Positions 12,080 to 49,444 of a stretch of 64,000 nt of DNA are shown piece by piece (the stretch's first letter is position 1; each line of letters opens with the position of its first letter). Below the pieces are notes generated by a model. It was not told where the DNA came from, made no database searches, and saw only the letters and a program-made list of their open reading frames with translations. The stretch comes from a virus (Duplodnaviria; Caudoviricetes). The position numbers and the translations under genes are program-made. The DNA is taken from IMG/VR virus record IMGVR_UViG_3300021387_000147; one strand, written 5' to 3'.

Positions 12080-13699
12080 TTACCACTTTACTGCATAATC
12101 AGGTTTCTTTTCTTCTGTAATTTCTACAGCCACATCTTCTGTAGATAATGTCATACTTAGTTTATCTGATGTTGATTTATTTATCTGAGGATTTAATGTT
12201 TTATCTAATGATGTTTCATATAATGTTTGAATATCACCAGATGGTAATTCATCATTTGTATTTATATTATCACCGAACTTCAACCAATGTTGTGCACATG
12301 TTTTATTCAATCCATCGCCAAAGAATTCCTTACATATATCATTTAAGAAATTTACAGGTGCTGTATCAAAACCATTACCATGATCACCAAATAATTGCAT
12401 TACTCCACCATAAACTAACATAGTTGCTAATGCTAATTCACCTGTTGCTGTTCTAAATATACCAGGATTTCCAGTAGACATACCTTGTCTAACTGCTGCT
12501 CTATCTTTTGCAACTTCAAAAGATGATCGATCTAAATCTTCCCAATTTGCTGGATAATATGCATACAAAGGTTTACCAAGTCTTCTACATTGAAAACTTG
12601 TTTTATCATAGATAGAATAATTTTTATTTGATTCTAATATAATAGCATGTAAAATTGAAACTGGTGATTGATACCAAGATTCTCCTTTTAATGTTGCTTT
12701 TTGTGCTTTTGAATATACTGTCACATTTGGATCATAAGAAAAATACCATTGTGGATTTCCATATCCTGTTAAATCTTGTGCAGAATTATAATTATAAACA
12801 CCTCTATGTTTTGTTATATTACCATTAATACTCATTACTGTAGCAGTAATATAATTTTGCATAATAGCAACTTCTTTATATGCTCCATCCATTTGATATG
12901 AATTTAATGGTACAAATGCATCAACACCATTCCATACACATAATTGTAATGCAGTTTCACCTATATCTTTAAGATATGATAATTCATTATGTGGAACGAA
13001 ATGATTATTTTCCCAAACAACAGATGATCTATAACCAGGAGCAGACGTTGTTTCTTCAACACTATATAAACATGCAGATGATGAAAAATTTTTCATAGCT
13101 GTTGCTGCTATAAAATTTCCACTTGTCCATTTAGATGTATTAGATGTAATATAATCATAAACTGATTGTTTATAATCATTAATAAATTTCTTTTCATCAT
13201 TATATTCATGATATTCTGCTATATCACCAAATTTACCATCATTTGCAGTAAATGTATACTTAAAAGTATAATTATAATAACTTCCTGGACCAGAAGCAGC
13301 TCCACCAGAACCAGTTAATCTTACAGTCCATTGAATACCATCTATAGTTAATGGACATCCTGCCCATACTCTATATGTACACCAATTTTTTAATTCTTCA
13401 ACCCAAAAATATTTACTTTGTGTTGGATCTGATTTTTCTGTACTACCAATTTTTAAATAACCATTATCATTTGGACTACTACAATATTCTGTTTTATTTT
13501 GCCAATTATAAGGTTCTACATATTCACCATTAGCAATCTTTTCTGCTAATGTTTCTTTTACATCTTCTATTGTTTCACTATTATAAGAAACTTTATCTAA
13601 ACCAAAATCAATTACTTTACTACTATTATGAATACTATTCTGTGTAGTTATTGTTTGATTTCGTTTAGTAGCTTCAACTGTTTTAAAATATCCTATCAT
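12080..13699 (-). CDS. putative virion structural protein
   Basis: 539-aa ORF directly behind the late promoter TATAAATA. Confidence 0.5.
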   Translation of the reverse strand: MIGYFKTVEATKRNQTITTQNSIHNSSKVIDFGLDKVSYNSETIEDVKETLAEKIANGEYVEPYNWQNKTEYCSSPNDNGYLKIGSTEKSDPTQSKYFWVEELKNWCTYRVWAGCPLTIDGIQWTVRLTGSGGAASGPGSYYNYTFKYTFTANDGKFGDIAEYHEYNDEKKFINDYKQSVYDYITSNTSKWTSGNFIAATAMKNFSSSACLYSVEETTSAPGYRSSVVWENNHFVPHNELSYLKDIGETALQLCVWNGVDAFVPLNSYQMDGAYKEVAIMQNYITATVMSINGNITKHRGVYNYNSAQDLTGYGNPQWYFSYDPNVTVYSKAQKATLKGESWYQSPVSILHAIILESNKNYSIYDKTSFQCRRLGKPLYAYYPANWEDLDRSSFEVAKDRAAVRQGMSTGNPGIFRTATGELALATMLVYGGVMQLFGDHGNGFDTAPVNFLNDICKEFFGDGLNKTCAQHWLKFGDNINTNDELPSGDIQTLYETSLDKTLNPQINKSTSDKLSMTLSTEDVAVEITEEKKPDYAVKW

Positions 13700-13703
13700 A
13701 CTT

Positions 13704-13711
13704 TATTTATA
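13704..13711 (-). promoter_or_regulatory. T4-type late promoter
   Basis: TATAAATA, 4 nt upstream of ATG 13699. Confidence 0.75.
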
Positions 13712-13761: not shown

Positions 13762-14763
13762 TTATGCTATTTCAAAGAATCCTAATGGAGATTCCAATCT
13801 TATCTGTTCTCTACAATCATCCCATTCTTCTTTATAAGATGAATACAAAGAATCAGCATTCAAAGAACCACCGCCTGCAATTGATAAAGTATACTTACGC
13901 AATGCATTAGTCCATATCATACCTGCTCTTGCAACTACCATACGTCTAAAGATTACATCATTAAATAACTTACTTGACTTCTGTCTCTTGTATACTTCCA
14001 TCAATCCTCTTACAGGATGGTCAGGTTGAGGCCATACAGATAATTCCTTTTCTTTCTCATTATATCTTACGGTATATGATTCACCGAAATCCATCTTAGC
14101 CTGTTCCAACCATACAAGTGCAGCATTCCAATGACCTAGAACATCACCAAATCCACCAGCATTACTATAACAAGAACCTGTAAAGGAACTACCCATACTC
14201 ATTACTGTGTTATACAAAGCATTGTGTGGTAGAGTAAACAAATCATTGATTGTTCCCATCCAATCTGAAACTTGGAAATCTACAATAGACTCTAATTCAT
14301 CACAGATTTTATAGTGTGATTTTCCTGGTACTAAGTCCATAACAAGATAATCTCTATAATTACCTTCTCTGAAATAATACTTCCACATGTATTTAACTGT
14401 ATCAGCAATAATGAAATTCAATTGCTGATCTGAAATTTCAATACAAATTACTGGAGCACCTAACATCATCTTAATGTAGTTTCTCATTTGAGCTACATTC
14501 TGAATGTTCATCGCATCCATAAACTCATCCCTAACAGGAGGTTTAAATGGAGGATGTGGAGGTGCAGGTGGATGAGGTGGAATTATATCAGGTTTTGGTC
14601 CTGTTCCTGGCCATGGTCCATCTGCTGGAGGGAATGGTCCTCTTATTTCATTTCCTGGAAGCATACCATCCATTGGAGGATGCATTGGAAACATTCCACC
14701 TGGAGGTGGAGGAGGTTTTGGAAATGGTCCTTTCTTAGTAATTTCTTGTGTTATATTAGCCAT
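13762..14763 (-). CDS. neck protein (T4 gp13-like) with Pro-rich N-terminal extension
   Basis: YIKMMLGAPVICIEISDQQL, W...L.KY....AGG.SLN...LY. Confidence 0.85.
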   Translation of the reverse strand: MANITQEITKKGPFPKPPPPPGGMFPMHPPMDGMLPGNEIRGPFPPADGPWPGTGPKPDIIPPHPPAPPHPPFKPPVRDEFMDAMNIQNVAQMRNYIKMMLGAPVICIEISDQQLNFIIADTVKYMWKYYFREGNYRDYLVMDLVPGKSHYKICDELESIVDFQVSDWMGTINDLFTLPHNALYNTVMSMGSSFTGSCYSNAGGFGDVLGHWNAALVWLEQAKMDFGESYTVRYNEKEKELSVWPQPDHPVRGLMEVYKRQKSSKLFNDVIFRRMVVARAGMIWTNALRKYTLSIAGGGSLNADSLYSSYKEEWDDCREQIRLESPLGFFEIA

Positions 14764-14767
14764 ATAC

Positions 14768-14775
14768 TATTTATA
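14768..14775 (-). promoter_or_regulatory. T4-type late promoter
   Basis: TATAAATA, 4 nt upstream of ATG 14763. Confidence 0.75.
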
Positions 14776-29987: not shown

Positions 29988-31916
29988 TTATTGATGTCCG
30001 CTAACTACAAAAAATAATGAACCTTTACCATCACATGCACCGCCATTAACTAAGTTAGTTATTTCAGTATCACCATTAACTACAAATAATTGTTGTGCAT
30101 TCCAACCAGTATGACCTTCTTTATAATTTACAGCTGATATTGCAGAACTATTATTACCATCTGTATACTTTATCAAATTTGTATTTGCATTTATTTCTAA
30201 TTGTGATTTATTTACAAAATTCTGTTGATTAACCCAAGATTCTGCTTGATTCAAAGCATTAGCACTAGCATCATTAGCGTAGGTCTTAGTAGCATATTCA
30301 GCAGGAACAGCAGTTAGGTAATGTTTGTTTTCAACCCATGTCTCAGCTTCACTTAAAGCATTAGCACTTGCTGCTTCAACATCAGTTTTTAAAGCATAAG
30401 TATTAGGAATAGAAGTTAAATAACCTTGTTGTCCTACCCATGTCTGAGCTTGACTTAATGCAGCCGCACTAGCTTCATTTGCATATGTTTTTGTTGCATA
30501 GTCAGTTAAATCTGTATTCTTTAAAAATCCTTGTTCTCCAACCCAATCATGTGTAGCAATTACTTCAGTATTAACACCATAAGGTGAATTTTGAGTACCT
30601 TCACCACTAATTGTATTTGGTGTATCAAAAACATAACTTGCACCAGTTCCATCAATACCATTTCTTACATCAAATGTTAATGGATGTTCTGCATCATGTG
30701 TAGCATCAGTAATTATTACTGTTGTTCCACCTGGAGTTCCAGGAATTGCTGAATATGAAATAGATGGAGAAACACCATTTGAACCAGGTTCACCTGATAC
30801 ACCACTCATAACATCAATTGATTCTGTAGAAGGAGTTCCACCATCATCATAAGTAAATGTGACTCTATTACCGCCAGGAATTGCAGATGTTGAAACAGTT
30901 GGTGAAATACCATCTTTACCATTATCACCATCTAATACAGTAAATGAATCTGTATGTGTTGCATCTGTAATTGATACTGTATGTTGACCTGTGACTGTGT
31001 CATCAATTGTTATAATTGGTGAGAAACCACTTGCACCAGTATCACCTTTAGTGCCGGCATCACCCTTATCACCTTTATCACCTTTTTCACCAGATACACC
31101 TTGAGGACCTATTGGGCCTTGTGGACCAGTTGGACCTTGTGGACCAGTTGGACCTTGTGGACCTCTAGGACCTTCAGGACCTACAGAACCTGCAATACTA
31201 CTAATATAGATATTATTTAATTTATATCTACCTTGTGCTGATTCACCCTTAACTAAGAATTTTAAAGTAGTAGGTACTTCTTTTAAATTAATAATACCAG
31301 TTATCCATTCTGACTGCACATCTATTTTCTGTGGATTACTTGTAGTATCTTTAATTAAACTATCATCAAATAAAATAAATGTTTGATATAAAGCATCATC
31401 AATACTTGTGCTTTTTGAAATAGCAATATCTAATTTGTTATTGATACTACTCTGTGTAGGTTCATATAATACTTCAATTTTAACATCATAGATACCAGCT
31501 GGAATAGTAAGACTCTCAGATAATGCGCCAGCTTCATGATTAAAATCAGCTGCAGTTTCTGTATATGTAGCTAATACAGAATCATACTCATTCTGTTTAA
31601 ATAATGACCATAAAGAATCATCACTTGTACTAGATGATTCTATTGGCTGATATGTAACATTAAGACTACCATCAGCATTTTGTTCAATAGTTTGAATAGT
31701 CTGGTTTGGTTCACATGACCATGCAGATGGAGTAATTTCTGGAGTAAAATGTTCCATTGCGGCAGAAACACTTTCAATTGCTTCTGCCAATGTTTTATCA
31801 TTTTCATTAAATTTCTGTACTGTATTTGAATTTAGCCAATTACCATCAGCTACAGTATTTCTACTCCATTGTTTACCAGCATTACTTACAATTTTTCCTA
31901 CTAAACTTTCAGCCAT
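29988..31916 (-). CDS. collagen-repeat fibre protein
   Basis: Gly-X-Y run [15 protein letters not shown]...[14 protein letters not shown] repeats, three YATK-type ~35-aa repeats. Confidence 0.75.
31030..31190 (-). repeat. collagen-like Gly-X-Y coding repeat
   Basis: Tandem 18-nt unit ggaccttgtggaccagtt and 9-nt unit atcaccttt. Confidence 0.85.
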
Positions 31917-37745: not shown

Positions 37746-37822
37746 TTACAACCGGGGCAAAGGATTCGTGCAAGGTTGGGAATATGGAGGAACACTCCAT
37801 ATTCTTTTTTTATAAATATAGT

Positions 37823-38230
37823 ATGCTAACATTAGATAAAAACTCAGATTTTAAACGAATTGAAACTTCCAAGGTCCAATCCAATTATTATGATTTGGAT
37901 GTTAATATAGTAGATACAGAAGTATGGTCTTTTGATGCATTAGACCAAGCTATCGAAAATGTTCTATTAACAAATAAAGGCGAACGCATTTTCAATTATT
38001 CTTTTGGAACTCCTTTAATAGAACTCTTATTTGAAAATGATGTAAATACAGATTATATCGTTGATAAAGCCTTGGATGTTATAGAAACATGGGTTCCAAT
38101 AAAAATCATTAGAAGTAAAACACAATTACAAAGAGATAAAGAAAACCATGCAATTTCATTCTTTATCTACTATAATTCTAATGACGGAATGATTAGAGAC
38201 CACTGTTTTGCTAGACGCCTAAGAAAATAA
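37823..38230 (+). CDS. baseplate wedge subunit (T4 gp25-like); start re-called to 37823
   Basis: Y.DL, AL.QAIENVLLT.KGER.F...FG, I.TW.P; TATAAATA at 37811-37818. Confidence 0.85.
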   Translation: MLTLDKNSDFKRIETSKVQSNYYDLDVNIVDTEVWSFDALDQAIENVLLTNKGERIFNYSFGTPLIELLFENDVNTDYIVDKALDVIETWVPIKIIRSKTQLQRDKENHAISFFIYYNSNDGMIRDHCFARRLRK

Positions 38231-38276: not shown

Positions 38277-38319
38277 ATATTAACTGCAAAAATCGAGAGA
38301 TTTATTTTATAAATAATAA

Positions 38320-38920
38320 TAAAATGGTAAAAGAGAATAGCATATAAATAGCAAATTTTTAGCAACTTTTCTTTTTTCGCAGATTTTTAAGCACATACAT
38401 AAGCAAATTATCTCTTTTACCTTAGGTTGATGACTATACCATCTGTTATGTTATTTCAGAAAAATAGTTACCATAGAAGAGGTTTTTTGTAATACGAATC
38501 CTTACAAACTATTTTATAAAGTTTATTTTTATAAAGAGAAAAGGATCCTCGGCTCAACCCAATGAGTTTTAGGTGAAGTGGACCCCAGAAGAAATTCTGA
38601 ATATAATAACACAAAAGAACAGCAAGTGTTCAGTGATAAAAGTTTAACGAGCTTTTTATACGCCGTCTTGAGTATTTTTGAATAGTTAAGTCCTTGTACA
38701 GGAAGACCACCAGGGTAAAGTCAAAATGTAAATCTCCTTATACGTGAGAGTCCGATATACTGAAAAGTATTATCCCCATGTTCTATAAGTCTAAAATAGG
38801 CTTATAGTTTCAAGGTCCTCTACCTGAAAAAATAGTTATCCTATAACATTTAATTCTATAATAATTAAATACATTGGATAACAGAGTTATCCAATGTGTC
38901 AATTCCTTAGGAATTGACAA
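38320..38920 (+). ncRNA. candidate large structured non-coding RNA (class unknown)
   Basis: ORF-free, preceded by TATAAATA (38308-38315 and 38343-38350); about ten hairpins, two GAAA tetraloops, G-U wobbles that work on the plus strand. Confidence 0.5.
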
Positions 38921-40505: not shown

Positions 40506-41613
40506 TGAGAATGCTCAGCAAGTATATTACTTGTTGAAGAGTATTAAAAAGAATTGTAAGTTTGATTATACGATAACATTAATAGAATGTAGTAAAAACA
40601 ATCCTATCAAGAATGTAATTGATGGTGTTACAAAATATGTAACTGATTTTGACAAAGCACATTCTACATTAAAATACTATATCAAAGAAAATCTTTGTAT
40701 TTTAAATCCTAACATCCTAATAAAGAAAGATTTTAGAATAGAAGACGTGTCAGAGCCATTCATTTTTGGAGAAAATTGTTATTTTTTACCTAGAACAGAT
40801 GAGCTAGAAGAATATAAAAAGACAGTAGATTTACCTGTAGAAATATGGGATAAAGAGTCTAATTATATAGATTGGCTTTATAAACATGAACATGATTGGA
40901 AATTCTATTATGAAGATTTTATTGTGTCTATGACAACATGGCATAAGAGAATTCATGATAATGCAACCTATGAAGCATTAGAGAGTTTTGTAAATCAGAA
41001 ATGTGATTATACTTATAAAGTTATAATTGTTCTTGCTGAAGAAGAATTTGGAAAAGAAGTTCCAGCTAGAATGAAAGAATTTGTAGATAATCATAGTGAT
41101 AAGGTTGAAATTTTATGGACTTATAAAGATACACGTCCATTAAAGAAATTAGACCCTACAATGGAAAAATATCCTGAATGTCCTATTGTTACATTAGACG
41201 ATGATGATATTCTAGATGAGAATGATTTACAAAAGTTATACATACAACACATGGAAGATCCATGGTCTGTATATGGTTCTTTAATTGAGAATGGATATGG
41301 AATAGAAAATTTCGATTATGTCTGTAAATGGGTAGCAAATTGTAGAATATGGCCACCACATTGTTTATATAATTTTCCATTAAATGATTTTTATGAATAC
41401 TTTGGTGGAATACTTGATGATAACTTCAATGCGGTAAGATGTTTATATAAGATGACACCTGTAAAAGAAATAAAGAATATTCTAAGTCATAAGAAGAATG
41501 ACAGTGAAATTAAGTTGACTTATGAATATGCAGATACAGACTGGCCTAATTTGTATTCTAACTTTATTATGCAACATTTAGAAGAGTTGCCACCGGATTT
41601 ATTGTATGAGTGA
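40480..41613 (+). CDS. GT-A glycosyltransferase-like protein
   Basis: IVSMTTWHKRI, KKLDP, IVTLDDD; C-half paralogous to 31964-32560. Confidence 0.72.
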   Translation: MINFGIVDNENAQQVYYLLKSIKKNCKFDYTITLIECSKNNPIKNVIDGVTKYVTDFDKAHSTLKYYIKENLCILNPNILIKKDFRIEDVSEPFIFGENCYFLPRTDELEEYKKTVDLPVEIWDKESNYIDWLYKHEHDWKFYYEDFIVSMTTWHKRIHDNATYEALESFVNQKCDYTYKVIIVLAEEEFGKEVPARMKEFVDNHSDKVEILWTYKDTRPLKKLDPTMEKYPECPIVTLDDDDILDENDLQKLYIQHMEDPWSVYGSLIENGYGIENFDYVCKWVANCRIWPPHCLYNFPLNDFYEYFGGILDDNFNAVRCLYKMTPVKEIKNILSHKKNDSEIKLTYEYADTDWPNLYSNFIMQHLEELPPDLLYE

Positions 41614-43126
41614 TATAGTTTATTTAGAAAAAGTAAATGAAACAGTAGTTAAAGTAGATTGTAATGACGAAGTAGCACATAATTTATATTGTCGTTATTC
41701 TGCTTATTCTCCTGGTTATATTTTCAATCCTAGATATAAGATGCACGTCTGGGATGGTATGATACACATGTATACTCCAAGAAGTAGTACCATTCCTATG
41801 GGTCTTTTACCTGACGTTATTCGTTATTTTGATAAAGAAGGTATTGAATATAAATTATCTAATTTCACCAATATGATTGATGAAAATATAGATGATTGGT
41901 TTGAACAACAAATGAAAGCAAATATGGTTAATGCACCATATCCTTTACGTGATTATCAGAAAGAAGCTATTTACGCAGCATTAAAGAATAAGAAAGGTAT
42001 TCTACTTTCTTGTACTTCTTCTGGTAAATCCTTAATGATTTTCAATATCATTGTGACTTTATTGACACAAAAGAAATTAAAGAAGACTATGATTGTTGTT
42101 CCTAACAAAACCCTAGTTGAACAGTTGTATAAAGATTTTATTGACTATGGATGGAAGAACATTGATATTTGTGTCACAAAATTATATGATGAAGAAAAGA
42201 AGAATGTAGATTTTAGAAAGCCAGTATTGATTACAACTTGGCAATCAATCTATAAGAAAGAAAAATCTTTCTTTGAAGATTATCAAGCAGTAATATGTGA
42301 TGAAGCTCACCAGAGTAAAGCACAAGCATTATCTACAATCTTAAAATCATGTACAAATGCAAGTTATAAGATTGGTACTACTGGTACTTTATCTACAGAA
42401 GCATCAGATAATTTGACTATTCAGAGTATTTTAGGAGATATTCTATTTGAACTTAGAAGTAAGGATTTGATTGAAAAAGGTTATTTAACAAAGATTACTA
42501 TTGCAAATATCTTAGTCAAATATCCTATGGAGTTTATTAAGACTCATAAGAATTTGCAATATCCTGAAGAAGTTAGATATGTAGAAGAATATCCTGAACG
42601 TAATAAAGCGCTAGATTTAATCCTGGACCATACTCCAGAGACTCATAATATCTTATTGCTAGTAAACCATCGTGATCATGAAAAAAGCCTCCAGGAATAC
42701 CTGAAAGCGAAATATCCTAATAAGAAAGTAAGTATTATTGATGGCTCTGTAAAAGCAAAAGAAAGAGAAAGTATTAGAACTGGAATTGAAAATGAAGATG
42801 GAACTATTTTGTTAGCAACTTTTGGAACTATGTCTACTGGTGTTAACATTCCTAAACTTCATGCAGTTGTATTATATTCTAATTCTAAGAGTAAGATTAA
42901 GGTTTTACAGAGTATTGGACGTGGATTGAGAAAGCATAATACAAAGTCTCATGTTATCTTATATGATATTATTGATGATTTGTCTTATTTTACACCAAGA
43001 GGTAAACATAAGAAGAATTACTTATATCAGCATTGGGAAGAAAGAACAAAGTATTATGTTGAACAAGAATTCCCACAAATTACAACTAATTTAAAGTTGG
43101 AGTATCATCCTGAGGATCAGGAATAA
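41606..43126 (+). CDS. uvsW: UvsW-like SF2 DNA helicase
   Basis: WDG.I, LRDYQ, TSSGKS (Walker A), DEAH, GTTGT, STGVNI, LQSIGRGLR. Confidence 0.93.
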   Translation: MSDIVYLEKVNETVVKVDCNDEVAHNLYCRYSAYSPGYIFNPRYKMHVWDGMIHMYTPRSSTIPMGLLPDVIRYFDKEGIEYKLSNFTNMIDENIDDWFEQQMKANMVNAPYPLRDYQKEAIYAALKNKKGILLSCTSSGKSLMIFNIIVTLLTQKKLKKTMIVVPNKTLVEQLYKDFIDYGWKNIDICVTKLYDEEKKNVDFRKPVLITTWQSIYKKEKSFFEDYQAVICDEAHQSKAQALSTILKSCTNASYKIGTTGTLSTEASDNLTIQSILGDILFELRSKDLIEKGYLTKITIANILVKYPMEFIKTHKNLQYPEEVRYVEEYPERNKALDLILDHTPETHNILLLVNHRDHEKSLQEYLKAKYPNKKVSIIDGSVKAKERESIRTGIENEDGTILLATFGTMSTGVNIPKLHAVVLYSNSKSKIKVLQSIGRGLRKHNTKSHVILYDIIDDLSYFTPRGKHKKNYLYQHWEERTKYYVEQEFPQITTNLKLEYHPEDQE

Positions 43127-43448
43127 ACTCTTGATCTGCTATATGTTTGATAGCTTCTAATTTGTGATATTTTTTATTTCTATGATATATTTTAGTTATA
43201 TCATAGATTTTTTTTGTAAATTTTTCTTTGTCCCAATTGAATGTATCAATATTGGGTTTATTTGATAATAAATCTACGTAGATAAAGCGGACTACTATAT
43301 TATCTTTATTTTCACAGATGAAACCAAATGTATCATCTTTTTCATATCCAAAATAAAAATAATTGTCACCAAATGGATATACATTTATACCCAATGTTTT
43401 TATATAATCAATTACTTCTTGACTTGCATTAGAGAAAAAGACGTCCAT
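43086..43448 (-). CDS. isolated member of the C-terminal-tag family
   Basis: KYHKLEAIKHIADQE near the C-terminus; TATAAATA-N4-ATG start. Confidence 0.65.
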   Translation of the reverse strand: MDVFFSNASQEVIDYIKTLGINVYPFGDNYFYFGYEKDDTFGFICENKDNIVVRFIYVDLLSNKPNIDTFNWDKEKFTKKIYDITKIYHRNKKYHKLEAIKHIADQEFIPDPQDDTPTLN

Positions 43449-43460
43449 AAAGTATTTATA

Positions 43461-43985: not shown

Positions 43986-45290
43986 TTACCATACTAGATC
44001 TGTAGACATGCCGTCTGAGAATAGACCATTGAACTTCAATAGACGATAGTAGTTTTCAGCTCCCAACATATTTGTTGCGAATCCATAACGAGACATAATA
44101 CCAACACGTGGTGAGAAGTCGTTTGGATCAACTGCCTGGTTGATAACACCAGTTACGTATGGGCAGAATACTACACCAGCATCAGACAATGAAGAACCCT
44201 TATATGCTAATAGAACTTCACCGTTATCAGTTGTACCATCTTCAGATACAGCGTACTGATCACAGTATACCTTGATTGAATTGTTTAGAGTACCGATTTC
44301 TGGAGTGACTAGAGAACCGTTAACGTCGTGCTGAATCTTGTTGAAGAATGGAGCAGCTGACTGTAGAACTGTAGCCATATCTGGAGAAACTACTGCGATG
44401 TTTGCAGCGCCTCTACGAGTAGCGGTACGAATATCGTTTGCAGCCTTTTGGATCTGTGTAACGATGTTTGAATATCTTTCCTGAGACCAACGTCCGATGA
44501 TACCATCGTAATTAGACTTATAATCTTCACCAGAAGCCTTATTGTAAATCTTTGGTGTACATAGAGACTTACAACGACCGATTGTTTCACGGTCCATTTC
44601 TGCGGTCATTTCTGCCTGAAGAACGTTAATCATTTCAGACATCATTTCAATACCCTGCATTGCCTTAATATCAGCTGCAGATTCTAGAGAGAATGATGCT
44701 GCTAGTTTACGTGTCTTAGCAACGATAGACTGTCTTGACAACATTAGGCCTAGTTCTGGCATCTTACGATCACCAGTCTTTGTGATTCCCCAACCTTCAC
44801 CGGTCTGAGTATCAACACCAGTACCTGCATCGTATGCTCCATCAGTGTTCTGTGTAGAACCTGTGAAACCAGAGAAACGAGGAACTGCCTTCCATGCTGC
44901 TTCAACTAATTCTGTTGGATCGTTTGTCTTATAAATGTAACGTAGTGCGAATGCCAAACCAACTGGACCATTCAATGGCTGAACACCAACCAATACGTTA
45001 GCGAATAATTGTGGGAATACTCTACGTACTAGTGCCATAGAAATAGGTGCAAAAACACCCTTTGCGTCACCACCGTGTGGAATACCCTGGTCTAGACCAA
45101 GAGGTGCACCAACACCCTGTGTGAAATCTTCTGTTAGAAGATTTTCAGAAAGGTTGCCCTTATTCTGGTTTTCTAGTAGACGAGCAGTGTTCATACGAAC
45201 ATTATAATCTTTAATTGAAGAAACAGACAAAGAACCTGGTGCCTTTGACCATTTATCCAATAATGATGCTTGTGCTTGACTAATTTTCAT
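43986..45290 (-). CDS. major capsid protein (T4 gp23-like); start re-called to 45290
   Basis: ARLLENQ, LVRRVFP.L.A...VGVQP..GP.GL.FALRY, AKTRKL, CPYV, DP..F.P.VG.MSRY; AGGAG SD before MKISQ. Confidence 0.95.
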   Translation of the reverse strand: MKISQAQASLLDKWSKAPGSLSVSSIKDYNVRMNTARLLENQNKGNLSENLLTEDFTQGVGAPLGLDQGIPHGGDAKGVFAPISMALVRRVFPQLFANVLVGVQPLNGPVGLAFALRYIYKTNDPTELVEAAWKAVPRFSGFTGSTQNTDGAYDAGTGVDTQTGEGWGITKTGDRKMPELGLMLSRQSIVAKTRKLAASFSLESAADIKAMQGIEMMSEMINVLQAEMTAEMDRETIGRCKSLCTPKIYNKASGEDYKSNYDGIIGRWSQERYSNIVTQIQKAANDIRTATRRGAANIAVVSPDMATVLQSAAPFFNKIQHDVNGSLVTPEIGTLNNSIKVYCDQYAVSEDGTTDNGEVLLAYKGSSLSDAGVVFCPYVTGVINQAVDPNDFSPRVGIMSRYGFATNMLGAENYYRLLKFNGLFSDGMSTDLVW

Positions 45291-45334
45291 TTGTTTATCT
45301 CCTATAAATAAATTATTTTTTAATTTACTTATTA

Positions 45335-45342
45335 TATTTATA
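45335..45342 (-). promoter_or_regulatory. T4-type late promoter for MCP
   Basis: TATAAATA about 45 nt upstream of the MCP start. Confidence 0.7.
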
Positions 45343-45368
45343 TAATTAACCAATTATTTTTTGCAAAA

Positions 45369-46343
45369 CTACTCATCGTCGCAATAACGAGCGCTTCTTA
45401 GCAAGTCTTCTTCGTTTCTTGATAATGGGCGTGGACGTTTGTAGCCTTCGTTAATGTTTTCTGTTTTGTCTTCGACGAATGCTGACTGACGTTTTGCGCG
45501 TTGAGCACGTTCAAACAAGCGTTGACGGTCTTCACGTAGTGCACGGATTTGGTCTGCTTCTTCATCTAGCATTTCAATACAATTGTCGATGTCTTTCTTT
45601 GTTTCAGAAAAAGTTTTGTTTTCAAATAGACGATTGACTTTTGCTTTCTGACGTGGAGTCATTCCTTCAGTCTTTTCAGCAATCAATGCTTTCTTTGAAT
45701 TAACTTCAGCAACTTCGGCTAAACGAAGATTTTCAGACAATTGCTTCTTCAATGACTTTTGAAGTTCTGCATTTTCTGCCTTCATTTCACGAATCTTCTT
45801 AGCACCGGTTAAGTCAAGTGGAATATACTGTTCTTCAAACAATGACTTAACGCCATCGATGATAGGTGCATACATTTCACTCATAGCTGTCTTCTGAATC
45901 AATTTTGGACCAATCTTTTCCTTGATATTAAATTCTAGATACTTGTCGATACCAGTAATAACTTTGTTTTCGATAGCCTTTAGTTCTTCACCGTATTTTT
46001 CTCTGAACTTTTCTTCTAGTTGGTTGAATACGAATGCTTCTGAAGCTTCATCAAGAGATTTTGCGTATGCCTGAACCTTTTCGTTTGCTTCTTTTTCATA
46101 CTGGTCTTTGATCTTCTGACAGTATAATTTAGCCATTTCTTCAGTTTCAGCGGTAATCTTTTGTTTAGCTTCTGCGATCTGTTTCTTACACCAATCTGCA
46201 GATTTTTCGGCTAGAACTCTTGCTTCTTTATCTGAGTTAATCTTTACTTTAGCTTCAACTGCTTCATCGAATGACTTCTTAATATCATTCAAGTCTTCAG
46301 CTTGAACTCCTAAAGTAGCTAGTTTTTCAAGAATTTTATCCAT
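45369..46343 (-). CDS. prohead core scaffold protein (T4 gp22-like)
   Basis: Coiled coil with F.EAVEAK, ID.YL, G.KSLF.E.YI, GMT..QK.K...L; directly upstream of MCP; GGAGG SD before ATG 46343. Confidence 0.85.
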   Translation of the reverse strand: MDKILEKLATLGVQAEDLNDIKKSFDEAVEAKVKINSDKEARVLAEKSADWCKKQIAEAKQKITAETEEMAKLYCQKIKDQYEKEANEKVQAYAKSLDEASEAFVFNQLEEKFREKYGEELKAIENKVITGIDKYLEFNIKEKIGPKLIQKTAMSEMYAPIIDGVKSLFEEQYIPLDLTGAKKIREMKAENAELQKSLKKQLSENLRLAEVAEVNSKKALIAEKTEGMTPRQKAKVNRLFENKTFSETKKDIDNCIEMLDEEADQIRALREDRQRLFERAQRAKRQSAFVEDKTENINEGYKRPRPLSRNEEDLLRSARYCDDE

Positions 46344-46426
46344 TTTTGATTCCTCCAAATTTAGAAAATAATTTTATTTTTATTTTCATATCTTATTTAT
46401 GACTATTATAGAGCCGAATTTTGCAT

Positions 46427-46460
46427 AAAAAAAGCTCATTGGTTTTCGCGTCCAATGAGC
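46427..46460 (-). terminator. rho-independent terminator
   Basis: Perfect 9-bp stem followed by T7 on the minus strand. Confidence 0.8.
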
Positions 46461-46500
46461 CCGAGAATAGCATTTTCTCTATAGCAATTTAGCAATTTAG
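46427..46500 (-). ncRNA. candidate ~75-nt late small RNA with UGCUA repeats
   Basis: TATAAATA at 46506-46513, then (TTGCTAAA)n, a GAGAA/TTCTC hairpin and a GCTCATTGG/CCAATGAGC-T7 terminator. Confidence 0.5.
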
Positions 46501-46538
46501 CAATATATTTATAACTTTCGTTTTGTCACTTTTTGCAA

Positions 46539-47132
46539 TTAGTTTTCAGTTGGGACTACTTCGAATGATGAATAAGAGAATGTAACTGAACGTTGAATCT
46601 TACCATCATCTTCCATACCCAAGTCTACTGAAGATACAGTCTTTGGCCATACTCTATATAGACGCCATTCAACTGGTAGTTTTCTCTTTAAAGTAGAATC
46701 GAACAAAACAATCTTCATAGTACCACAGTAATCTTTAGCATAATTACTCATAGCACCACCAGTCAAGTTTCCGTTTGCTACGTCAATATCATCACGGAAG
46801 CCATGGTTAAAGATTAAGTTCTGCCAATGGTGGAAAGCTGTAGATACCCATAGGTCTTGGAATTCATCGAAGTTGACAGTTACGTCACCTGCAACGTTTG
46901 CCTTACCTGGATAAATTAGCTTTGAACCCATATATTCAGTAGTCATATCAGTAAATTCCTTCTGAGGAATTGTGACAGTCTTTGCTCTGAACATAAATGG
47001 CTGTTGACCAACCATATCTTGTAATTGCTGTGATTCGAATTCGATTACAACCTGGAATAGATACTTCTTTGCTAAGTCAGGAAGGTTAGCAATTTCGGTT
47101 GTAAATACGCTCATATTATTTTCTACTGGCAT
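46539..47132 (-). CDS. tail tube protein (T4 gp19-like)
   Basis: LAK.YLF.V, F..K.V.IP, Y.G.....PG, WP..VS..DL, VTF.Y. Confidence 0.85.
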   Translation of the reverse strand: MPVENNMSVFTTEIANLPDLAKKYLFQVVIEFESQQLQDMVGQQPFMFRAKTVTIPQKEFTDMTTEYMGSKLIYPGKANVAGDVTVNFDEFQDLWVSTAFHHWQNLIFNHGFRDDIDVANGNLTGGAMSNYAKDYCGTMKIVLFDSTLKRKLPVEWRLYRVWPKTVSSVDLGMEDDGKIQRSVTFSYSSFEVVPTEN

Positions 47133-47144
47133 TTATAACTCTCC

Positions 47145-47522
47145 TTATTGATGTAGAACAATAGTTGGTGCAACCTGTGGCTGACCTGTTGGATCTTCCA
47201 ATTTAGCGTCACCGATATGTGTATCTGTTGCAACTTGTAATGGTGCGTTTAATGTGTGAGTGTGACCATCACCTGCTGGCCATACTTTACCGTCTACAAT
47301 TTGGTGAACGTGACCACCGACACTTGCTTGACCTTGACAATCTGGTGCGGCGATAGCATCACTAGTATAACCATAGCCAAATTCATTCCAGATAATATAA
47401 TCGTGTCTATGAGGTCCCATCCAATTAGAACCTGAGAATACGTCAGTATATCCTAACTGAGATGTATTCTCATTTAGGGTAGCCTTTTCGCATTCATTTT
47501 TCATGTATTCTGCTAAATTCAT
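47145..47522 (-). CDS. His-motif protein (HxH repeats), possibly metal-binding head protein
   Basis: PHRHDY, GHVHQI, GHTHTL; N-terminal MNLAEY...LNE. Confidence 0.6.
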   Translation of the reverse strand: MNLAEYMKNECEKATLNENTSQLGYTDVFSGSNWMGPHRHDYIIWNEFGYGYTSDAIAAPDCQGQASVGGHVHQIVDGKVWPAGDGHTHTLNAPLQVATDTHIGDAKLEDPTGQPQVAPTIVLHQ

Positions 47523-47830: not shown

Positions 47831-49444
47831 TTAGAAACCTAAATCGTCTCCACCTTCATTTTCTTGGTCACCACCTTCTTCCTTAGCGGCATCTGCTTTC
47901 TTCTTCATTTCTTCAATTTCTCTATCAAGCATTGCCTTATTTAATAGCATTTCTTCAGTAGATAGACCTAACATCTTTTCCATAAAGAACTGTCTTGAGA
48001 ATAGTGGGCCTAATTCTTCTGCATCTGGCTTGATATTAGTTGGAGTTGGTAGGAACTGAGATAGAGTACCAATTGTAGCACCTCTCTTTTCAGCCAAAGC
48101 CAAATCTCTCATTCTGTCAAAGTCAGTTGCTGGACACAAGTCAATATCATAAATTGCTTTATCCAAGAATTTTTCAGGATAATTTCTAACCTTTAGATGG
48201 ACTAAGAATACTTGTAGAATAATATCAGCAAATCTCTTTCTTAATCTTCTATTCAATTTTTGGAATGCAGCTTCTTCAGAAGGTAAACCATCTACACCTT
48301 GAACGTATTGTTTACCAGAAATTTCATCAGCTTTCCATCTGTCTTGTGGAATTTGTAGAGCATCCATAACCATCTTCTGGAACATATAAAGGTCTTCAAT
48401 CTGACCATTAAATGTTGCACCACCGGTATAAGTATCAATAGTAGTACCATTTCCAGAGTCATCCTTAGGGAAGAAGAAATCTTCTGTCATTGCGGCTACA
48501 TTCTTATTTGAAATAATCATACCAGTATTTGGGTCGATGTTCAAATTCTTTCTATATTTGTTTGTAACTTCTTGAACGAATGCTGCAGCTTTTTCAGGTG
48601 GCATACGTCCACAATAAATGTTGAACAATCTCTTTTCAGTTGCACGAGTAATACGGTAAACTGTCAAAGCATCTTCAATATTTCTTAATTGGTTCAATGG
48701 ACGAATAGCTGACTCTAAGTGTCCTCTAACGTCATTTCTGTTTGCCCAAGTTCTACCATAGTTTACGTATGCAATCTGTTCAGGTAAGAAACGTTGAACT
48801 TCTGGATTTGAATCTCCAGCTTGTTTTAGATAGTTAATATCTTCAATATAACCTCTAATTAAATCAGAGTCTTTATCATAGATGTTAATCATACAATAAG
48901 GTGGAAGAGTATTGATACCTACTACCTTATCTCCTTTATCAGAAAGACAAATTTCCCAATAAAGCTCTGCATCTGTCAACCATTTCTTATAGTAGTCCCA
49001 TAATTGTTCTTTACCAATTACACAGTCTACAATATAATTAAATTCTGTCTTTAATGAATTGAATTCATAATCAGTGAAGTTTGCCTTATGATTTTCATTC
49101 AATTCGAATTTAGCAACTTTACCATCAGCATTAAAACAAACTGCTTCATCTGTCATAACAGTTAGTGCTTTTTGAACAAGTGGATATAGAGCCATATTTC
49201 TATACCACATAATTTTTTGATACTTATTAGTGAATACAGTATCGAAAATTACATTACTTTGTTCATAAGGTTCACCTGGGTCTACATAACCATCGGTATA
49301 ACCATTAACTAAAGCACCCCAGTCGATTTGGTCTTCACCATAACCTACTGAGTTTCTAGCAGTTTCTGTTTTTCTAACAATAGAATGTTCAGGTCCTCTT
49401 TGAAGGAACTTGTCTGAGAATGGGTTTAAGAAATTTAAATTCAT
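47831..49444 (-). CDS. portal protein (T4 gp20-like)
   Basis: YRNMA.YP.V..A, LE.AI.P.NQLR..EDAL..YRI.RA.E.R.F, M.EDFF.P, F.K...RL..RF. Confidence 0.95.
   Translation of the reverse strand: MNLNFLNPFSDKFLQRGPEHSIVRKTETARNSVGYGEDQIDWGALVNGYTDGYVDPGEPYEQSNVIFDTVFTNKYQKIMWYRNMALYPLVQKALTVMTDEAVCFNADGKVAKFELNENHKANFTDYEFNSLKTEFNYIVDCVIGKEQLWDYYKKWLTDAELYWEICLSDKGDKVVGINTLPPYCMINIYDKDSDLIRGYIEDINYLKQAGDSNPEVQRFLPEQIAYVNYGRTWANRNDVRGHLESAIRPLNQLRNIEDALTVYRITRATEKRLFNIYCGRMPPEKAAAFVQEVTNKYRKNLNIDPNTGMIISNKNVAAMTEDFFFPKDDSGNGTTIDTYTGGATFNGQIEDLYMFQKMVMDALQIPQDRWKADEISGKQYVQGVDGLPSEEAAFQKLNRRLRKRFADIILQVFLVHLKVRNYPEKFLDKAIYDIDLCPATDFDRMRDLALAEKRGATIGTLSQFLPTPTNIKPDAEELGPLFSRQFFMEKMLGLSTEEMLLNKAMLDREIEEMKKKADAAKEEGGDQENEGGDDLGF

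Follow-up and report, generated by a model that had tools for sequence, protein, structure and literature searches.

The junction between the tail-tube and scaffold genes of a T4-like phage carries an insertion that may be a self-contained, dispensable non-coding late transcription unit yielding a short terminated RNA, a reading that we regard as quite possible, if short of probable. The window (the whole stretch of DNA that was analyzed, 64,000 nucleotides) comes from an uncultured phage, and near-identical contigs occur in sheep and cattle rumen metagenomes and metatranscriptomes. A blastn search with 45300-47200 against 50,697 phage records returned zero matches. Four genes around the junction match T4-type families:

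47831-49444, minus strand, portal gene
46539-47132, minus strand, tail-tube gene, with its stop codon TAA at 46541-46539
45369-46343, minus strand, scaffold gene
43986-45353, minus strand, major capsid gene

Two small minus-strand genes, listed between the portal and tail-tube genes, match such families too. The tail-tube/scaffold gap measures 195 nt, and the insertion within it is ~110 bp long, lies on the minus strand, and holds no protein gene. The first-pass annotation had described a perfect late-promoter box, repeats, a hairpin with a fourth TGCTA, and a strong terminator here, and every one of these features is present where it had been placed:

46530-46537, minus strand, upstream promoter element TGCAAAAA, 24 nt before the TATAAATA box, at a -35-like position
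46513-46506, minus strand, late-promoter box TATAAATA, recognized by sequence and conserved over haplotypes
46503-46496, 46495-46488, and 46487-46480, minus strand, 8-nt tandem repeat reading TTGCTAAA, TTGCTAAA, and TTGCTATA
46463-46479, minus strand, small hairpin (GAGAA 46479-46475, loop AATGCTA 46474-46468, TTCTC 46467-46463)
46472-46463, minus strand, the 10-mer TGCTATTCTC, which is the 3' part of the small hairpin
46427-46462, minus strand, intrinsic terminator (GGGCTCATTGG 46462-46452, 9-nt loop, CCAATGAGC 46442-46434, T7 46433-46427)
46394-46425, minus strand, scaffold gene promoter (TGCAAAA then CATAAATA), directly after the terminator, part of the flanking gene and outside the unit

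Tandem Repeats Finder reported the repeat at 46482-46504 with a period of 8, 2.9 copies, and 100% matches. The stem of the small hairpin is 5 bp, and its loop holds another TGCTA. The terminator stem is GC-rich and 9-11 bp long, and the terminator is predicted to serve both the small transcript and the tail-tube transcripts. Four copies of TAGCA fall within 45 nt, an arrangement that 0 of 300 Markov simulations produced, and TAGCA alone among 157 similarly frequent 5-mers forms three clusters in the window. Both the tandem repeat and the TAGCA clustering exceed chance. The third TAGCA cluster (30260-30290, plus strand, three copies within 45 nt) sits inside a 642-aa gene of the opposite strand and probably reflects a repeat in the coding sequence. 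With >119 unrelated matches in viral contigs, a 14-mer of the tandem repeat was uninformative. AAAUUGCUAU resembles the SELEX consensus of T4 RegA; the window contains no regA gene.

In the predicted RNA fold, the repeats stay single-stranded ahead of the hairpin and the terminator (-19.3 kcal/mol, z = -2.9). The unit had been called free of ORFs, and this holds: there is only one 26-aa frame without a Shine-Dalgarno (SD) sequence, running through the terminator, plus two plus-strand scraps, and the frames are not conserved. A small peptide was rejected as a candidate product, since the 26-aa frame crosses the terminator, lacks an SD, and shifts by indels and T-run variation between lineages. 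An attenuator with an alternative antiterminator fold was likewise rejected, as the fold contains no competing structure and the genes downstream are served by promoters of their own. Rfam returned no family for the whole window at the gathering threshold, and no family for 46300-46600 at E values up to 10, with nothing better than E = 6. A tRNA/tmRNA scan found none.

We aligned the 27 [TC]ATAAATA boxes of the window and found TGCAAA(A) 23-24 nt upstream at 4 of them (binomial P = 7.5e-6 for TGCAAA), namely, the boxes at 38308 (plus), 45342 (minus), 46401 (minus), and 46513 (minus). The promoters of this class, each with a TATAAATA or CATAAATA box, span the following positions:

38285-38315, plus strand, promoter of the 38.3-kb non-coding RNA locus
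45342-45366, minus strand, promoter of the capsid gene
46394-46425, minus strand, promoter of the scaffold gene
46506-46537, minus strand, promoter of the small unit

Among phage regions, those driven by the three members other than that of the unit, i.e., capsid, scaffold, and non-coding RNA, have the best coverage in four rumen RNA libraries and yield the most abundant phage RNAs of sheep rumen libraries. The TGCAAAA element is retained at the matching promoters (capsid, scaffold, and non-coding RNA) of relatives down to ~60% tail-tube identity, and the scaffold promoter is kept in all relatives, whether the unit is present or absent. Judging from these sequence patterns, the 46513 box is probably a member of a conserved class of promoters that have a -35-like element, and the promoter is probably real. 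In T4, the late promoter TATAAATA is recognized by gp55 and gp33 together with the sliding clamp. The T4 box is identical to the box of this phage; however, T4 late promoters have no -35 element, whereas four promoters here carry a conserved TGCAAAA at that place. A late-promoter class with a -35-like TGCAAAA in a T4-like lineage is testable and bears on the grading of late transcription.

Across the window, late boxes sit 4-30 nt ahead of structural gene starts. At four places, TATAAATA stands exactly 4 nt ahead of an ATG without an SD (37811-37826, plus; 13699-13711, 14763-14775, and 43448-43460, minus). The box at 37811 implies a gp25-like protein of 135 aa, not 148 aa, and gene callers chose likewise in several relatives. 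From boxes 4 nt before SD-less start codons, it follows that transcription should begin ~5-6 nt past the box. With such a start, the RNA of the unit would have its 5' end within the first repeat copy and a length of ~70 nt.

The unit comes and goes among close relatives. It is absent from L191 and L192, whose neighboring genes are ~98% identical to those of the window and which have a different terminator at this place. In relatives with tail-tube proteins 89, 79, 76, and 70% identical, the junction has just one or two terminator hairpins and then the scaffold promoter, and more distant relatives have extra genes at the tail-tube/scaffold junction. No outside source of the insert was found; unit-specific patterns in viral contigs match the same clade only. 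The unit is restricted to one narrow, species-level clade of rumen T4-like phages, so its conservation has limited weight. Among species genomes, the unit-specific pattern led to two phage contigs binned in unrelated MAGs, one as Candidatus Coprovivens (L159, G005) and one as a Succinivibrionaceae bacterium (L160/L162, G006). These unrelated bins conflict; at least one of them is contaminated, and neither indicates the host. A scan of 98 Succinivibrionaceae genomes yielded nothing further. One sister lineage has its UvsW-type helicase gene split by an intein/Hint-domain insertion that brings extra small ORFs (L176 14607-17505 and L177 14581-17476, counterparts of window 41606-43126); the window copy is uninterrupted.

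The unit occurs in 15 distinct versions among about 40 contigs, and diversity was computed over 26 haplotypes. The box has a diversity of 0.018, TGCTATTCTC 0.043 (identical in 15/15 distinct variants), and the terminator 0.061, with an invariant stem. The repeat region or 5' body reaches 0.25, which is 3-7x the value at synonymous sites of the flanking genes (0.03-0.08), and is hypervariable between close lineages. Thus, the signals and the 10-mer have been preserved, in contrast to the repeat region, which outpaces neutral sites. Little or no variation is found in the upstream element, the box (changed to TATTAATA in L186 and L188 only), the TGCTA core of the second repeat, TGCTATTCTC, or the terminator stem. 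Conservation is entirely lacking in the first repeat copy, and single motif copies mutate freely (TGTTA, TGCTG, AGCTT). By its sequence pattern, the fast repeat turnover could reflect slippage, relaxed constraint, or diversifying selection. In lineage G, the 5' arm and loop of the hairpin are deleted between two GCTA copies, and the motif survives. In lineage H (L190), the terminator loop is replaced by GTTGCTA and the hairpin loop has TTGCTA instead of ATGCTA, so that both loop changes create additional motif copies. The new TTGCTA in the terminator loop fits selection for the motif and does not discriminate between the readings considered below. RNAalifold found the terminator as the sole shared structure, with no covariation.

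The earlier proposal of a small independent late RNA gains from the promoter class, from the conservation of box and terminator over 26 haplotypes, from the lack of a conserved ORF, and from the add-on anatomy; the size is a prediction. In the model that we prefer, the late promoter (TGCAAAAA, 16 nt, TATAAATA) would fire with a start ~5-6 nt after the box, and the strong intrinsic terminator would halt most transcripts at about 60-75 nt. The resulting RNA would comprise an unstructured 5' region with UUGCU(A) motifs, the invariant UGCUAUUCUC, and a terminator hairpin with a U-tail, a predicted layout that is the usual one for base-pairing sRNAs. It may then accumulate and act in trans, and its putative contact surface would consist of UGCUAUUCUC and the UUGCU motifs. 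As for the hallmarks of an sRNA gene, the unit has its own promoter in silico and is non-coding with a stem-loop and U-tail. The RNA evidence consists of assembled contigs, which cannot reveal ends, strand, or level and which come from libraries that lose RNAs under ~100 nt. Libraries X2 and X10 have no contig over 46386-46650 and a run search with a 74-nt stretch turned up no RNA run, neither of which is informative on expression. To our knowledge, sRNAs of virulent T4-like phages are barely described, and we know of none linked to a late promoter.

The small RNA had also been proposed to be antisense to the 5' end of a locus at 38.3 kb, which has the following features:

38326-38336 and 38411-38421, plus strand, 11-bp leader stem (GGTAAAAGAGA with TCTCTTTTACC) enclosing a ~75-nt AGCAA-rich loop
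38333-38365, plus strand, proposed pairing site, at the start of the AGCAA-rich loop in the leader hairpin
38632-38740, plus strand, core of the locus, a sub-threshold, full-length match to Rfam RF02947 (cow-rumen-2 RNA)

The core scored 52.1 bits (gathering threshold, 66) with E = 1.2e-8 over model positions 1-106 of 106, and it sits within a 740-nt non-coding gap behind a late promoter. Discrete contigs of ~290 nt at ~38462-38798 were present in three RNA libraries from three studies, much deeper than their flanks, and one of these libraries (X2) carries a strain identical to the window. A relative of the orphan cow-rumen-2 RNA is thereby located in a T4-like phage and is abundant in rumen RNA libraries. 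The leader loop has 4-6 AGCAA motifs and is hypervariable, shortened, or absent among close lineages (the leader is shortened in L176 and absent in L177-L179 and G002), while the leader does not vary over its first 35 nt and the stem is preserved in relatives, with a single C-to-T change that yields a G-U pair. The leader matches the small unit in its plasticity. Assemblies often break at the leader stem-loop. A second TATAAATA at 38343-38350 (plus) was considered as a late promoter and rejected; it reads TATAAACA, AATAATAC, TCTAAATA, or AATAACAC/AATAACAT in close relatives and, not being conserved, is probably no promoter.

The proposed similarity between the two loci was only partly borne out. 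The three collinear blocks shared with 38333-38365 exist (11 + 7 + 8 nt), but the similarity does not stand above background, with a local alignment score of 28 versus 29 at an unrelated locus; with looser scoring, 72/2945 random windows equaled it. A duplex search of the 64-kb window did rank the leader first among non-self partners, at -27.6 kcal/mol, yet this energy is within the range of -23.9 to -31.3 kcal/mol at which shuffled sRNAs find partners across the window. In all six lineages with both loci on one contig, the duplex is predicted to persist, with energies of -26 to -31.5 kcal/mol, and against the leader alone 0/300 shuffles reached the observed energy in each of the six. However, cognate sRNA-leader pairs are no better than non-cognate ones. 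The search for compensatory changes in relatives gave one possible case, a leader CAGCAA that accompanies an sRNA UUGCUG in lineages E and H, against an uncompensated A-C mismatch in lineages C and D and an uncompensated change in lineage B. The sRNA of lineage F (contigs L166-L175) likewise has UUGCUG. Strict co-occurrence of the unit and the AGCAA leader was rejected, as L191/L192 have the leader without the unit and L186/L177 have the unit without the leader. What stands of the suggested pair of a small and a large RNA is the top rank in the window and the complementarity in six lineages; window-wide significance, cognate preference, and strict joint occurrence are not found. Within the window, the best target candidate is the AGCAA-repeat loop of the leader, albeit a rather unlikely one.

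We weighed three other explanations against the preferred one of a short terminated late RNA. A trans-antisense pair, in which the UUGCU motifs and UGCUAUUCUC would contact the AGCAA loop and GAGAAUAGCA at the base of the leader hairpin, seems unlikely to us, and equally so the proposed effect, in which the hairpin would be opened or cleavage directed to control the maturation of the larger RNA. Besides the duplex rank, the leader-only shuffles, and the lineage E and H pair, this explanation can point to a 10-nt complementary seed that is invariant on both sides and to lineage G, which shows joint reduction or loss of the two elements and, in one sub-lineage, a mutation in the sRNA box. In library X2, with its window-identical strain, the leader is far scarcer than the RNA core, as expected if the leader is removed. 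Against these points stand the shuffled sRNAs that do equally well window-wide, the DNA similarity within background, the lack of a cognate advantage, the uncompensated changes, and the separate occurrence of the two elements. Moreover, the target GAGA is buried in the 11-bp stem of the leader itself, and that stem together with nearness to the promoter explains the invariant leader segment. The abundant ~290-nt RNA begins ~100 nt downstream of 38333-38365 and does not contain the proposed target. A multivalent repeat-to-repeat version (UUGCU against AGCAA, with a 10-bp seed) that would control leader removal and maturation is a long shot in our estimation; if true, pairing would offer the first clue to what the orphan cow-rumen-2 RNA class does.

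That there is no functional sRNA at all is doubtful but credible. The terminator would then be that of the tail-tube gene, the box a duplicated or extra promoter whose read-through feeds scaffold and capsid, and the repeats an unconstrained spacer. All relatives have a terminator at this position with the scaffold promoter right after it, and its role in ending tail-tube transcripts would keep the terminator conserved regardless of an sRNA. Read-through into the scaffold gene could be the reason for retaining the promoter, and one RNA-library contig spans the terminator and bridges the tail-tube gene, the unit, and the scaffold gene. Close relatives do without the unit, its hairpin is deletable, and the 5' body, which outpaces synonymous sites, fits slippage-prone, little-constrained sequence as well as an adaptive one. 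However, a 9-11-bp GC-rich stem with T6-7 should stop most transcripts and so give a short RNA whenever the promoter fires, and an extra promoter behind a terminator adds little where scaffold and capsid have same-class promoters downstream. This explanation is also at odds with TGCTATTCTC, invariant in the 15 variants even where the hairpin is lost, and with the new TTGCTA copies in loops. A protein could instead read the motif, either as a double-stranded DNA factor at TTGCT/AGCAA near both promoters, which might also read the related upstream element TTGCAAAA, or as an RNA-binding protein titrated by the UGCUA RNA; we consider this improbable. The TAGCA clusters at both loci have the same orientation and are rarer than chance, TTGCTAAA is one base off TTGCAAAA, motif copies lie in the single-stranded stretch, the hairpin loop, and the L190 terminator loop, and the leader retains its 4-6 AGCAA copies even without the sRNA. 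On the other hand, no candidate protein was identified, each RNA has only 2-4 copies versus 8-22 in known sponges, and the copies mutate freely. An 8-bp spacing would put successive DNA sites on different helix faces, and the motifs of the two RNAs are complementary, not identical, so that one single-strand RNA-binding protein cannot read both.

The short late RNA that we favor can be compared with several known systems. CsrB/RsmZ sponges repeat a GGA motif in single strands and hairpin loops. The unit shares with them a repeated short motif in single-stranded stretches and loops of a small terminated RNA; unlike them, it has 2-4 poorly conserved copies of UGCUA in place of GGA. The lambda RNAs 6S (PR'-tR'), LPR1/PreS, and LPR2 are 63-194 nt long, are made during lytic growth, and end at intrinsic terminators in which a GC-rich stem is followed by a U-tail, LPR1 having its 3' end in common with an operon terminator (bioRxiv 10.1101/2024.10.31.621285). 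Like the predicted unit RNA, lambda 6S starts at a late promoter and stops at a terminator just before late genes. Lambda RNAs have been seen on Northern blots and on Hfq, whereas the unit RNA is a prediction from sequence. Read-through of lambda 6S requires Q antitermination for late genes that lack their own promoters. In contrast, scaffold and capsid here have their own promoters, which relatives without the unit keep, so that the late genes do not depend on terminator read-through. Neither sequence similarity between lambda small RNAs and the unit nor an Rfam match was found.

Morons are extra DNA between genes that are adjacent in relatives, with their own promoter and terminator (PMC3594210). 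The unit shares with those of tailed phages, e.g., HK97 gene 15, the insertion between neighbors and the promoter and terminator of its own, in our case as sequence signals. It lies between genes that are adjacent in close relatives and, moron-like, comes and goes at the junction among near-identical phages; it has no conserved ORF and thus does not carry a protein-coding gene. Classical morons encode proteins and are expressed from the prophage, whereas the unit is non-coding, has a late promoter, and resides in a T4-like, presumably virulent phage. We therefore describe the unit as moron-like in its anatomy and predicted working but not as a classical moron. If confirmed, such a non-coding add-on, gained or lost among near-identical rumen phages, would show that RNA genes change hands in the same way as protein morons.
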